Assembly (NCBI GenBank): GCA_000934665.2
Contig: KZ538609.1
Span: 1-59,056 of the forward strand
DNA: 59,056 nt
Reading direction: 5' to 3'
DNA from: Catajapyx aquilonaris
Taxonomy: Eukaryota
The notes beneath the pieces were generated by a model. It did no database searches and was not told the DNA's origin. It saw only the letters and a program-made list of their open reading frames with translations. Position numbers and translations under genes: made by a program. Shown piece after piece: positions 13,006 to 29,959 of this stretch. The first letter of the stretch is position 1, and each line of letters opens with the position of its first letter.

Positions 13006-13051
13006 ATGTCAGAAGAATTCTCCACTACATCAACTCCACCATATCTTGAAG
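13006..13051 (+). CDS. Nested unassigned gene, candidate leader exon A (MSEEFSTTSTPPYLE)
   Basis: ATG with an upstream in-frame TGA; AAG|GTGATG donor in phase 1, matching the phase-1 acceptor at 24033; acceptor AG at 12951-12952. Confidence 0.5.
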
Positions 13052-15568
13052 GTGATGTAACTGATTAAAATCATAACATAACTCAGTGGTGTATAAACCA
13101 TCAGTTCATGTGGAATTTTTTATAAAATAATTTTATAAAATTTTATAAAATTGATGTTCTCAACATAGCGTGATATCCAGAGGGCTTGTCACTGCAGCAT
13201 CAGTATGCTTAATATGCAAGTTTTTAAATTATTTAGATCATCCTGTATGTATTAAGGGTGTCCAAATGAAAAGAGGATGAACATTGTAGCACACACCCCC
13301 GACATGATATAAAAAAGCCTAGTGTGCCAATCAATCTGTTACTGGTTCCGCACTCAACTTCACCTGTGAGTTACATTGTGTGATGTCAGGCATTATTGAA
13401 CAGGAATTTTTGATAGTTAGCAGGGTGAGTTGTGTGTCTGTCCAATGCCGGAGCAGACGTCCACCAGATTCCTTGAATCATAAGAAGTGACCACTGTTGG
13501 GACAAACGAGTAGTGACCAGACACAACCTTTAGGGCTACCTCCAACACCTCTCTGGAATTGGTCAAGTCCAAGACATTGACCTCCAGAATGAAATTGACA
13601 ACCTCTTTCAGGATGCACACGTGGTTTTCAAAAGTGACTGCAACACCTAAGACATTGCAGAATTGGCTGTAAATTTGAGCAAAACACAGCAACAAAACAA
13701 TTTCTGTCTACTCATTCGTCCCAACAGTGGTCACTTGTTACGCTTTGAGAGACCTGGTGGATGTCTGGTTGCGCAACAAAGGCTTAAATCGTGGGGGCGT
13801 ACTGGACAGACACGACTCACCCTGTTAGCTACCAAAAATTCCTGTTCATGAACACCTGACGTCATACACAATCATGTAACTCATAGGTAAAGGTGCTGCA
13901 ACCAGGGTGGGAGAGAGGGGGGGCAGGGGGGGGGGGAATTCCCCGTGCCCGCGTGACCCGGTAGTATTCGTCAAAAACTTGTTTTTTCGCTTTGATGCAT
14001 GGTAAAATTTTTAAGTGGATAATATTAATAAGATATGAATTTTGCTGGCGTCAAAAAATGTTTGAAATTGAATCAGAATGCGTGTACAGTGTTGGATATT
14101 AATCGAGTCACACTGCTAGCGACATTTTCCGAAGTGGCAGAAGAATGAATCGAAGATATGGATAGTGCAAGTCCCCAGTCATTCTCCCTTTTCGAATGTA
14201 TAACAGTTGGTTTCCTGTCCAGGTTGCCAGGGAACCTGTTCGGGATAAATAATTAAAAAGCGCGTGGGCAACAGGGAACCAACTGTTCTATTTCGGAAGT
14301 ACTCCCTCCGATTTTACGAAGTGAGGTGGTGAAACCGTTTTAGTAGCTGTGCAAAAACCACTAGCCCAAATTAATCATGCTTTGGAGGAGTAAGAGAGGA
14401 CAACTTTTGCCATCGCACACCTTCGAGATATTTCCCAAATTCGAATCCGGAGCCAAGATGTCATGAGCCATTTTACAAAAACTCTTCCCCTTGTAGATCT
14501 CGCAATTATAATTCTAATTGATCGAAACTTCGTTGAGGGCTCAACTGGCCCTTCCTCGCCATGCTGTGAAAATTTCGAGTCCGTACCTCCAGCGAGACGC
14601 CCGCATCAGCAGTGCAAAGAGAACGCTGCCCCTGTGACTCGGCCAAACTTGACCCGCGATTCTGAAAAAGCGCATAAGTATCTGGCACCCTTAATATGCA
14701 AGTTTTTAAATTATTTAGATCACCCTGTATGTATTTGTAAGTGTGGCAACCCATTGGCTCGCTTAAAATTGTTATTAGCAGTGTAGGCCATAAATACTAC
14801 TTTGGAATATAAATTACATGGTAGTCAGCATTCTTTTGTTTTTAAACTATGCAAAGTATTACCACATTCCAAAAAGACACCTTTTCGTTGTAACATTTAA
14901 GAAAACTTTCTACAAGAATTAACATAGCCACATGATAGTATACAATCATCTTGAACTACTACTGGACACAAACCCTATTCAGATCCTAGCATTTTTCTAT
15001 TCTTCCTCCCTGCCGGTTGCCCCGCGAAGCGGGGCCACCAGCCCGCGAGAAAGGAATAGTGGGAAATCGCTACGCTCCCAATGTTAATTTCCCGACTGCA
15101 TAACTCGCGATCGGGTTAATCGATTTCAAATCGGAAACAAGATTTACACTCCGCTCACTCCAGTTTCAAACTTTAGATAGATAAACAACAACTAGGGCCA
15201 TTACCGGGGTCACTATCCGGGGTCAAAGTTCAAAAATGTGTCGTTACTTCGACAAGGGTACAGCCTAAACGGTGCGTCGTAGAGGGTCATACAATGTGTT
15301 ATGAGAACCGCAATGTTCCCAGGAAGCGCCCTTCTGCCTACCTTTTTTTGAGGAAAACCTTTACTTTTTGTGTTTCGAGGCGATTTAGATAGTGTCAGTT
15401 TTGTGGCTCTCGCGCTCTTTCTGTACCGAGACCGGATATACTTGGGAGGGGGGTCCCAGTCTGGAGCCCTCTTCCCCCACAGGAGGTTGAAGAGGGGGGA
15501 AATTTTGGGACGAAAGGGGGGACATCAGCAGGTTTTTACTTTATTCTGGTGATGAAAAGAATTAAATA

Positions 15569-15934
15569 AAAATAGGCAGTAAAACTGCAGAAAACTATTC
15601 TTCCTTTGCTGTGTGAGATTAAAAGTAAGAAACAAGTCCATAGGTGAGGGTTGGTTCGTGTCATAGGGATGTGTGATAATTAAATTTAATTCAAAACATT
15701 CGTGCTTTGGGGCTGGGAAGAATTAGGCAGATATCGCTTTTATATGTACTGTACTTCTCCGACTCTCATACTCTGCCTAATTCTTCCCAGCCCCAAAGCA
15801 CGAATGTTTTGAATTAAATTTAATTATCACACATCCCTATCACACTAACCAACCCCCACCTATGGACTTGTTTCTTACTTTTAACCTCACACAGCAAAGG
15901 AAGAATAGTGTTCTGCAGTTTTACTGCCTATTTT
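15569..15934. repeat. Palindrome with ~163-bp arms and ~40-nt loop
   Basis: 15569-15731 is the reverse complement of 15772-15934 with few mismatches. Confidence 0.85.
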
Positions 15935-27638: not shown

Positions 27639-27810
27639 GATGAGACAGAACAGGATGATAGAAAAGGAGGCATGGAATGTTGTGCAGAAGGGAAGGGCCC
27701 ATGAAGGCAAATCGAAGGAGTTCTTCGATCAGCTCCTGTGCTTTCACCATGAAATGCTCACATTTACGGATCAATCAGCAAGCTTTTCAGATTCAACTAA
27801 GATGATACGG
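27639..27810 (+). CDS. Nested unassigned gene exon (MRQNRMIEKEAWNVVQKG...DSTKMIR)
   Basis: TTTGTAG acceptor, CGG|GTTAGA donor; open frame, phase 2 to 0. Confidence 0.72.
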
Positions 27811-29605
27811 GTTAGATGTTCCAAATTTGATTCTTCCTTCTTTGAAACTACAGCAATGCCATAATATATTGCTTATTATGTCAATCTCAGAAATGACTAC
27901 AGCTTAAGTAGTACTCTATGTTAGTTTCATGTGGAACTTCATAACATCAGCTGCAGATAGAGAATGAAACAGTGATTTTTTGTACCTCGGTGCATGTGTG
28001 ATTGTTTATTTACCGTAAAATGGGGCTACTTTGATCCTGCGAGGCTACTTTGGTCCAAGCACGTGCCAAGTACTTAAAAAATGCATAAGATGGCAGGTAA
28101 TGACACTAACTACATGTAATAAGCACTGTCAGAATCACTTAGGATTGGTGACATCTGTGGTAAAGGTGTCATCGAAGTCACTTTGGCATGACTGTGTTTT
28201 CAAGAAGTCCATATTGCAGAGACCAGTGCAGTCACACATCTAGGTATGACATTCATTTACCATGCAAGGATTTGTAGTACCGGTACATTTAGTTGCCATT
28301 CCAGGCATGTGTAAGTCACAAAATAATTTTTATAAGGAATTGTGAGGGGAAAAGAAATCAAAAAAGTCGTAAGTGCTGGGGTTACTTTTGTCCATAATAT
28401 TCTTGGATCAAAGAAGCCCCAAGACTCCTTGTACATTATGGCCATGATAAACTGGACTCTCTGGGTACAGTCAGTGAGTTCAAAAAGTGTCTCCATGCCA
28501 TTACCAATGTAGTACTGTACCAGTGGCAGTTGTACTAATATATTTGATTATTCAGACAAAAATAATAGTCTATCATTAAAAAATACAACTTATTCAGACA
28601 AATATAGCCTTCTGCTGTTTTTGAATTATATCCAAGGGACCCACATCTCCAAGATGTACATGTGTCTCGGCCTATGTGTATTATCTGGACCAATGTTACA
28701 CCCAAAGGGGTTTAATAATTCAACCATGGACATTTTTCCAAGTGATTCATCATACAAGACTAAAGTAGCCCCACACCTTGGGGCTTCTTTAGTCCAACTT
28801 TGCCATTTTCTGTACAGTGTTATATAATCTACACTGCACGAACAATAGTACAAAGGTGTTAGTAAGATGTTCAAGAATGGTGCATAATTTTAAAGTTCGA
28901 AACTGCTATAGTAAGGGAGATATTAACCAAAATAACCAAAAATTGGTACAAAGTAGCCCCATTTTACGGTACTGTAAATGTTGCATCTAGAAAGTGGAAC
29001 AAAGTATTGTTCTTCTCTATTTTGGCAAAAAGTTCACCTCTGACCTTGTCCAAGTACTGTATAAGCTCTGTTCGCTTCACATGTTTATGACTAAATTGGT
29101 ATGAGCCTCTTTGTTTGCTCGTCCTTTTTTGAAAATTCCTAATGCAGCCCCAATGTAGAGATAATTATATCAACTTGCAATGTACTGCTCATATGAGGGC
29201 ATTCTTTGTGCTAATCAATAGATCATGAGCAATTTTAAGGTACAGTGCAGGTTTAAATAACAAAAACAAAAAAAACAGCCTTGTGCAGTACCCCTGCAAA
29301 AGTGCAAACAGCTAGCATGGCAGCTAGCTCGAAGTGGGTATGGGTGGAAGCATGTATGAATCAACACGTGCTCGTGCCTGCTTCCACCTGCGACAGCATT
29401 GGTGCTGTTTGCTGGGTTACAAGGTAGTTTTTTCCAGCAGTGTATTATGCTTCAACAGTGAAGTTGCTATAATGTACAGTACTTCCTATCGTTATCACTT
29501 TTATGGACTCACCACGAAGGAGCTGTGTACATTGGTTTTGCTGTTACCCCCCTCCGTACATAACCTCAGATCATTCTGACCCCCATCCCTGCTTCCTATA
29601 TTCAG

Positions 29606-29959
29606 AATACTAGCAGCACTGATCCTGTAGCAGTAGAAGCCTCAGTTCTAATACGAGAGTGCAGCCATGAGGTCCATAAACTTGGCCAGGCCTTGAAGTT
29701 CCTCAAGTCCGAACAATATGCCTATCACGGGGAGCAGCGAGAGTTGTGCTTCAAGATGCAAACCTTGCAGGAGCAAATGGAGGAAAATAACCAGAAGTAT
29801 GGCAAAATGGGAGAGCCCAGCGAGGAAGGAGAAAGTAGTGGTAGTCAGGAACCAGACAACAGTGGCCGTGCTGCAGCAGAGGTCGCTGGCACTCACGTGG
29901 ATGCCCAGACTTGCATTAACTGCATGGGAGACTCCGACGATGAACAAGATGAAATGTAG
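29606..29959 (+). CDS. Nested unassigned gene, terminal exon (probable coiled coil, then acidic tail ...DSDDEQDEM*)
   Basis: Pyrimidine tract plus TTCAG acceptor in phase 0; 117 open codons to TAG. Confidence 0.72.
   Translation, partial: NTSSTDPVAVEASVLIRECSHEVHKLGQALKFLKSEQYAYHGEQRELCFKMQTLQEQMEENNQKYGKMGEPSEEGESSGSQEPDNSGRAAAEVAGTHVDAQTCINCMGDSDDEQDEM

Follow-up and report, generated by a model that had tools for sequence, protein, structure and literature searches.

The first intron of a gene for an MTMR6/8-like phosphatase in Catajapyx aquilonaris (contig KZ538609.1 of assembly GCA_000934665.2, positions 1 to 59,056; this whole stretch is hereafter called the window) raises the question of whether it holds a second, independent protein-coding gene on the same strand. 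An earlier note on this DNA, made from the letters alone, had proposed such a gene, with five exons between positions 13006 and 29959. We examined the candidate computationally, with respect to its exons, its copy number, its predicted product, and its relation to the phosphatase gene. The evidence tilts slightly toward a real, single-copy, lineage-restricted gene for a protein that is acidic and disordered toward its N terminus and helical, with probable self-association, toward its C terminus.

Exons and reading frame

The exons of the model, with a slash marking a splice junction, are as follows.

13006..13051, plus strand: exon 1, 46 nucleotides (nt), beginning with ATG and ending at a phase-1 donor (AAG/GTGATG); the least certain part of the model
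24033..24985, plus strand: exon 2, the main coding exon, 953 nt with 317 full codons
26755..26945, plus strand: exon 3, 191 nt, 63 full codons plus 2 nt
27639..27810, plus strand: exon 4, 172 nt, 1 nt plus 57 codons, ending in phase 0
29606..29959, plus strand: exon 5, terminal, 354 nt, 117 codons plus TAG

The structure described in the earlier note was reproduced in full. All five exons are present as claimed, and every internal boundary has the canonical AG before the exon and GT after it. Cumulative lengths of 46, 999, 1190, and 1362 nt give the phases 1, 0, 2, and 0, and the joined coding sequence (CDS) of 1716 nt encodes 571 amino acids followed by TAG, with no internal stop codon. Inclusion of the 81 nt at 18543-18623 keeps the frame and lengthens the product to 598 amino acids, also as stated. 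Splice sites were scored with a crude matrix and expressed as percentiles, donors being ranked against all GT dinucleotides of the window. The donor of exon 1 ranks at the 98th percentile, the acceptor and donor of exon 3 lie at the 96th and 94th percentiles, those of exon 4 (donor, CGG/GTTAGA) lie at the 99th and 95th, and the acceptor of exon 5 lies at the 98th. The open frame of exon 3 extends from 26755 to 26949, and its limits coincide with the acceptor and the donor. A pyrimidine run of 15 nt lies 17 to 31 nt upstream of the exon 2 acceptor. We concluded that the assignment of 24033-24985, 26755-26945, 27639-27810, and 29606-29959 as coding exons is reasonably supported.

The frame of exon 2 is clearly open beyond chance. 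From stop to stop (23999-25021) it spans 340 codons and is the longest of all six-frame open reading frames (ORFs) in the window, which has a guanine-plus-cytosine (GC) content of 42%, many microsatellites, and one assembly gap. The expected number of frames of 340 codons is about 7.7e-5 per window, and no ORF in 200 block shuffles exceeded 234 codons. The frame contains no stop before its terminal one, the other two plus-strand frames of the segment contain 19 and 44 stops, and none of 20,000 shuffles of the exon 2 segment stayed open. In a composition test based on general amino acid frequencies, all nine 60-residue windows of exon 2 scored above the 99th percentile of a null set of 578 nongenic ORFs, and the purine-at-position-1 and G1-G2 biases of the exon fall in the top 1.3% of 224 null ORFs. 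The composition score of exon 5 lies above all 63 null windows, that of its first 80 amino acids lies above all 376, and its codon-position bias is in the top 1.3 to 1.8% of null ORFs. Composition was less extreme for exon 3 (P = 0.041) and exon 4 (P = 0.007). The test has low power, because bona fide MTMR exons score only P = 0.07 to 0.85. We concluded that exons 2 and 5 lie in ORFs longer than chance and with coding-type composition, and that this is weaker for exons 3 and 4.

Exact chaining of the phases is no evidence by itself, because 12 of 14 control 5-kb windows gave a three-exon phase-compatible chain of at least 717 nt when any AG and GT was allowed (dynamic programming). With sites as good as those of the candidate required, none of 58 overlapping windows of real sequence reached 717 nt (maximum, 708) and none of 300 shuffled windows did so (maximum, 594); the real region gives 753 nt. 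The chain of exons 3 to 5 through good sites backs the gene model, in a way that is supportive rather than rigorous.

Three further features bear on the ends of the gene.

18578..18623, plus strand: paralogous mini-exon, 46 nt from ATG to donor, inside 18543-18623
24020..24022, plus strand: alternative start ATG, in frame, 13 nt upstream of the exon 2 acceptor (the frame reads ...KIMCWADESSS...)
31149..31154, plus strand: first canonical AATAAA after the stop codon, 1.19 kb downstream; candidate poly(A) signal

The mini-exons at 13006 and 18578 share an identical first 14 nt at the ATG, a 14-mer that occurs exactly at these two sites only in the window, and a donor block (TGAAG/GTGATG) that matches at 11 of 12 positions. 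Overall, 30 of 46 positions are identical and the middle has diverged. Because both blocks were kept while the rest of the copies diverged, the start and the donor appear to be under constraint. The earlier note had offered 18543-18623 as an optional cassette exon. That segment holds a copy of exon 1 with the same 46-nt length and the same donor, and it is more likely an alternative first exon; judged from the sequence, the gene probably has two alternative first exons, at 13006 and 18578. The ATG at 24020 could also serve as the translation start without any upstream exon. Likeness between the two mini-exon copies reaches over 170 nt (12909-13074 versus 18480-18645; 61.8% identity in a loosely scored, weak alignment), and this segment could be part of an old repeat family; repeats are present in the bins around both copies.

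Two other observations concern the same region. A high-copy element has two copies, at 11051-11706 and 17525-18332, that are 87 to 90% identical and align in both orientations; it is foldback-like, with long inverted arms, and one copy lies upstream of each mini-exon. A patch at 12726-12875 on the plus strand, 130 to 280 nt upstream of the ATG at 13006, contains the core TGACGT and a tract rich in C and T. With a GC content of 61%, it ranks among the 150-nt stretches of the window that are richest in GC; its CpG content is low. It may be a promoter.

Several results weigh against the five-exon gene. Its weakest sites are those of exon 2, with an acceptor at the 72nd percentile and a donor (CAG/GTCTCT) at the 75th, and no alternative donor in exon 2 scores above 2. 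Exon 1 is not unique: eight phase-compatible ATG starts on five donors lie in 10110-24000, with equal or similar donor scores. Exons 3 and 4 show no significant codon-position bias individually. The thresholds of the chain test were set post hoc, after the candidate had been seen, with the crude matrix. Finally, the earlier note had assumed a nested poly(A) site; none was identified near the stop codon, and no canonical poly(A) signal occurs within 1.19 kb past it.

It is somewhat unlikely, if far from negligible, that exon 2 is coding and the five-exon model is nevertheless wrong. The gene would then have one or two exons, starting at the ATG at 24020 or in a mini-exon and ending at the stop codon at 25019-25021, and would encode about 333 amino acids; exons 3 to 5 would belong to another transcript or be partly spurious. 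The weak GTCTCT donor, for which exon 2 offers no substitute, speaks for such a gene, as do the frame that stays open for 12 codons past this donor to its stop, the in-frame ATG 13 nt upstream of the acceptor, the ease with which phases chain by chance, and the 72.5% of Drosophila same-strand nested genes given as single-exon in PMC3814207. Exons 3 to 5, however, have strong sites and a protein-like composition, and their chain is unmatched in 358 control windows. In addition, exon 3 requires a preceding phase-0 exon, since it lacks an ATG and begins exactly at a phase-0 acceptor, and exon 2, cut at the best CAG/GT it contains, terminates in phase 0.

Host gene and copy number

The host of the five-exon candidate was identified through the ORF piece at 58148-58519, which matched 226 proteins at an E value of ≤0.001 among 317 candidates. 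Among the best 120 of these 226, all named entries bear MTMR6/7/8-group names (the rest are labeled "hypothetical" or "unnamed protein"), and insects account for almost the whole set; its top named matches are from crickets, termites, cockroaches, locusts, stick insects, and dragonflies. We placed the host exons by tblastn of 8 of the 120 proteins onto the window.

10078..10101, plus strand: coding exon 1 of the MTMR6/8-like gene, MEFIKTPK, donor AAG/GTCAGT, phase 0; 8/9 identical to the N terminus in Schistocerca and Bacillus rossius
40320..40415, plus strand: alternative first coding exon, 32 codons, donor AAG/GTTAGA, phase 0; matches the N terminus of Ischnura elegans isoform X1 (E = 2.3e-4), frame confirmed
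54714..54830, plus strand: coding exon 2, VENVRMLDRF...KETW, phase 0 to 0; bounds the intron on its downstream side
55583-55745, plus strand: exon 3, by tblastn
~58160-58318 and 58388-58516, plus strand: exons 4 and 5, by tblastn

Same-strand nesting in the first MTMR intron, as the earlier note had described it, is borne out by these positions: the candidate CDS (13006-29959) lies wholly within the 44.6-kb intron between 10101 and 54714, and both genes are on the plus strand. Relative to the host isoform beginning at 40320, the candidate gene is upstream and not nested. Going by the sequence, the alternative first exon would imply two host promoters about 30 kb apart. Identity to the host within exons is about 80 to 85% at best, and for this reason the species and its close relatives are seemingly absent from the protein libraries. 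A literature search on nested genes in insect MTMR6 found nothing relevant. Two details of the host gene were also recorded. The short intron that separates MTMR exons 4 and 5 (58319-58387, plus strand) has no in-frame stop codon, and the two exons appear as a single 124-amino-acid ORF in the six-frame listing. The assembly gap (274 N at ~42650-42930) lies inside the host intron.

That the candidate exons share the strand of the host and lie within its transcription unit is also what would be expected if they were alternative 5′ coding exons of MTMR, joined to it by skipping of exon 5 and yielding an N-terminally extended phosphatase with an acidic and helical module. The phases would allow this: the cumulative lengths at the ends of exons 2 and 4 (999 and 1362 nt) are divisible by 3, so both exons end in phase 0, the phase in which host exon 2 starts. 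Such compatibility, however, arises by chance in one case out of three, exon 5 has its own stop codon and a strong acceptor, and none of the 120 MTMR6/7/8-family proteins, including those of 800 to 1150 amino acids, has any similarity to the candidate exons. We regard this origin of the exons as very improbable and treat the candidate as a gene separate from its host.

The copy number of the candidate gene was assessed with the contigs of two DNA runs (X1 and X4), a possible source of the assembly, placed on the window at a likeness of at least 80%. Three contigs match without any difference: exon 2 lies in the one at 23588-25847, exons 3 and 4 in the one at 26150-28095, and exon 5 in the one that runs from 28942 past 29959. 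In bin 23967-25300, which holds exon 2, and in bin 27302-27968, which holds exon 4, the one contig that covers the bin accounts for all of the summed depth (30.2 in X1; 17.4 and 18.6 in X4). The bins with exon 3 and exon 5 are slightly deeper (67.8 and 44.3 in X1), with additional contigs in some part of each, and intron repeat bins have summed depths of 1e3 to 1.8e5. The earlier note had named a match to a multicopy transposon accessory ORF as a finding that would speak against its proposal; at a likeness of at least 80%, exons 2 to 5 appear to have no second contig, and no second copy of them was found in the contigs of the two DNA runs. Contigs of a further run of unknown kind with the same species label (X5) lie on repeats only; exon 2, exon 4, and host exon 1 received no contig from it, and it is uninformative on expression. 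All runs on record are of DNA or of unknown type, none being of RNA, and no exon-exon joint occurs in the placed contigs.

Of the readings considered, the least probable is that the frame is a transposon- or virus-derived ORF, decayed or domesticated. Its introns are dense in high-copy repeats, and a tRNA-derived element lies 400 nt upstream of exon 2. The depth of the exon 2 and exon 4 bins nevertheless equals that of one contig, with no other copy at a likeness of at least 80%. Pfam scans of each exon found no transposase, reverse transcriptase, integrase, or capsid domain; the multi-exon structure is untypical of such elements; and comparison of the candidate exons with the rest of the window revealed no similarity and no further fragment.

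The upstream element is a tRNA-Ser(GCT)-like sequence at 23553-23624 on the minus strand (Rfam tRNA, 40.9 bits; also called by ARAGORN), inside the most repeated stretch of the region (about 23300-23966; summed contig depth, ~180,000). It looks like a tRNA-derived short interspersed nuclear element (SINE), about 400 nt upstream of exon 2. The translations of ORFs at 37099-37398 and 38428-38751 are similar to that of the stretch containing this element.

A gene for a NUP58-like FG-nucleoporin occupies approximately 1-7000 on the minus strand, head-to-head with the MTMR gene. Its ORF at 1320-1895 (minus strand) matches Pfam Nucleoporin_FG2 above the cutoff (E = 1.6e-14), and other FG-rich ORFs lie at 2450-2728, 5382-5894, and 6638-6997 (minus strand). 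NUP58 and MTMR6 are neighbors in humans too, and their linkage may be ancient. ORFs at 56896-57528 (plus strand, in an MTMR intron) and 7920-8201 (minus strand) resemble remnants of Tc1/mariner-type transposases by eye; the first has weak helix-turn-helix Pfam matches below the cutoffs, and the second has no Pfam match. Sixteen other long ORFs of the window matched no Pfam family.

Predicted protein and searches for relatives

The earlier note had described the product of the candidate gene as having an acidic, probably disordered N-terminal half and a helical C-terminal half, and charge, amphipathic periodicity, and AlphaFold2 models all back that description. The 571-amino-acid protein of the model has an isoelectric point (pI) of 4.75 and a net charge of -41, of which residues 1 to 333 carry -34. 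Residues 334 to 530 are near neutral and have a strong 3.5-residue amphipathic periodicity, a basic patch (KKRRMR) straddles the junction between exon 3 and exon 4, and an acidic tail makes up the final 41 residues. In a single-sequence AlphaFold2 model of exon 2, the mean predicted local distance difference test (pLDDT) score was 43.7; 258 of the 317 residues scored below 50, and a single long helix occupied residues 187 to 246. The corresponding model of exon 5 has a helix at residues 7 to 69 (pLDDT, 74 to 93), followed by a low-confidence tail.

Exon 2 also contains an internal duplication.

24344..24639, plus strand: tandem duplication, in frame, period 168 nt (56 codons); the copies, 24344-24471 and 24512-24639, are 91% identical

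We searched for relatives with single exons rather than with the spliced protein; exons 3 and 4 were covered by the Pfam and PDB sequence searches. The earlier note had recognized no family and no transposase motif, and Pfam agrees, with no match at the cutoff for any exon. Among the subthreshold matches, the Nup54 alpha-helical domain (PF13874) scored 16.1 bits on exon 5 against a cutoff of 30.5 (E = 0.011), SPATA19 (PF15212) scored 14.6 bits on exon 2 against a cutoff of 29.1 (E = 0.041), and Nuf2 DHR10-like (PF18595) and CENP-H (PF05837) lay below their cutoffs on exon 5, where the matches had E values of 0.011 to 0.069. With scores about half the curated cutoffs, the exon 5 matches reflect a compositional likeness to coiled coils and not membership in these families. 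Exon 5 also gave no alignment with the helical exon of the neighboring NUP58-like gene. An exhaustive phmmer search of exon 2 against 1.84 billion representatives returned a single, spurious match, P0121 (E = 4.3e-4), which is a bacterial dockerin and repeat protein matched through a 27-residue motif present in several copies. In the ESM Atlas, the top score for exon 5 was 0.83, below a useful level, and exon 2 had no usable match. Sequences in the PDB gave nothing below an E value of 0.4 for exons 2, 3, 4, and 5.

To the points raised above against the gene must be added those from these searches and from the duplication. Word-indexed searches of very large protein libraries with exon 2 and exon 5 found no relative, nor did two metagenome scans with the same exons. 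Support from conservation or from the ratio of nonsynonymous to synonymous substitution rates (dN/dS) is lacking because no homologue was found. The two copies of the exon 2 duplication differ at 13 of 43 codons, 2 synonymously and 11 nonsynonymously, with no sign of purifying selection; the 2:11 ratio looks neutral, being roughly as neutrality predicts. The earlier note had inferred a lineage-specific or fast-evolving gene. Its lineage specificity is weakened as a proposal by the apparent absence of the species and its close relatives from the libraries searched, as judged from a host identity of only about 80 to 85%.

The same results have to be set against the idea that the frame is nonfunctional, i.e., a decaying remnant or a young proto-gene without selection, perhaps transcribed only in host pre-mRNA. 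The lack of a relative in any library searched, the neutral-looking 2:11 ratio, the weak splice sites of exon 2, and the lack of a nearby poly(A) signal are all consistent with that idea. A stop-free frame of 340 codons, however, would not persist without constraint unless it were very young; four exons with good sites and a coherent composition are unexpected for junk; and the ATG and donor blocks were kept in two otherwise diverged copies of the mini-exon. We consider a nonfunctional frame unlikely. Quite improbable as well, and more so, is a more novel reading in which the MTMR intron was the recent birthplace of a large multi-exon gene, one that arose de novo or diverged until its origin could no longer be recognized; it would be in keeping with the neutral 56-codon duplication, with exon 2 sites that are weak because immature, and with two paralogous mini-exons that keep only their start and donor blocks.

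Under the reading that we favor, an independent protein-coding gene would lie on the plus strand inside the 44.6-kb first intron of the MTMR6/8-like phosphatase gene. Its 5′ end would lie either at the in-frame ATG at 24020 or in one of the two 46-nt ATG mini-exons (13006 or 18578), joined by splicing to 24033. The product would have about 560 to 571 amino acids and a pI of about 4.75, with a largely disordered N-terminal region of 330 residues that includes the recent 56-codon duplication and a C-terminal region of about 200 residues made up of long amphipathic helices, the KKRRMR patch, and an acidic tail. The helices are predicted to mediate self-association or partner binding, probably as a coiled coil, and the acidic disordered region would be a fast-evolving interaction platform. 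The KKRRMR patch may be a nuclear targeting signal. Judged from its anatomy, the protein would be a scaffold or adaptor, possibly a nuclear one. By analogy with Drosophila same-strand nested genes, expression would probably be narrow and plausibly germline or testis biased. Whenever the distal host promoter is in use, host transcripts would have to splice across the sites of the nested gene.

Comparison with nested and orphan genes

By the figures of Lee and Chang (2013; PMC3814207), about 10% of Drosophila melanogaster genes are nested in introns; 71.27% of the nested genes are on the opposite strand from their host, and about 29% are on the same strand. The earlier note had called same-strand nesting the less common arrangement, and this share of 29% makes it the minority among Drosophila nested genes. 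Of the same-strand nested genes in that data set, 72.53% are given as single-exon and 58.46% as having peak expression in the testis, and the class is described as evolving fast (PMC3814207). The candidate gene resembles these genes in that a single intron of a conserved, larger gene, read from the same strand, encloses its whole CDS; its lack of a detectable relative fits the fast evolution reported there. It differs from the single-exon majority (72.5%) of that account in having several exons spread over about 17 kb in a repeat-rich, 44.6-kb intron.

Like orphan genes, the candidate has no family and no relative in very large libraries, and its product combines a disordered acidic region with simple helical elements. 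Typical young genes are much smaller, and in this respect the candidate, with about 570 amino acids and four or five exons, is unlike typical young orphan genes. As far as sequence allows a judgment, its orphan status would not be separable from poor sampling of the lineage. The amphipathic helix of about 60 residues in exon 5 resembles the coiled coils of Nup54, Nuf2 DHR10-like, and CENP-H proteins, through weak profile matches only. With the host MTMR6/7/8 gene, the candidate shares a strand and a transcription unit, whereas its exons have no sequence similarity to the 120 family members compared and it possesses its own stop codon.

If the gene is real, automated annotation of a repeat-rich genome would probably miss it, given its long introns, its weak internal donor, and its lack of a family, and it would offer a tractable case for the emergence, within large introns, of helical or disordered proteins that evolve fast. 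Insects commonly have nested genes as well as orphan genes, and because of this the locus opens no long-standing question. Same-strand, multi-exon nesting is a minority but known arrangement and a fairly ordinary one for insects; a real gene at this locus would be a multi-exon addition to the minority class in which the splice signals of host and guest must stay apart.

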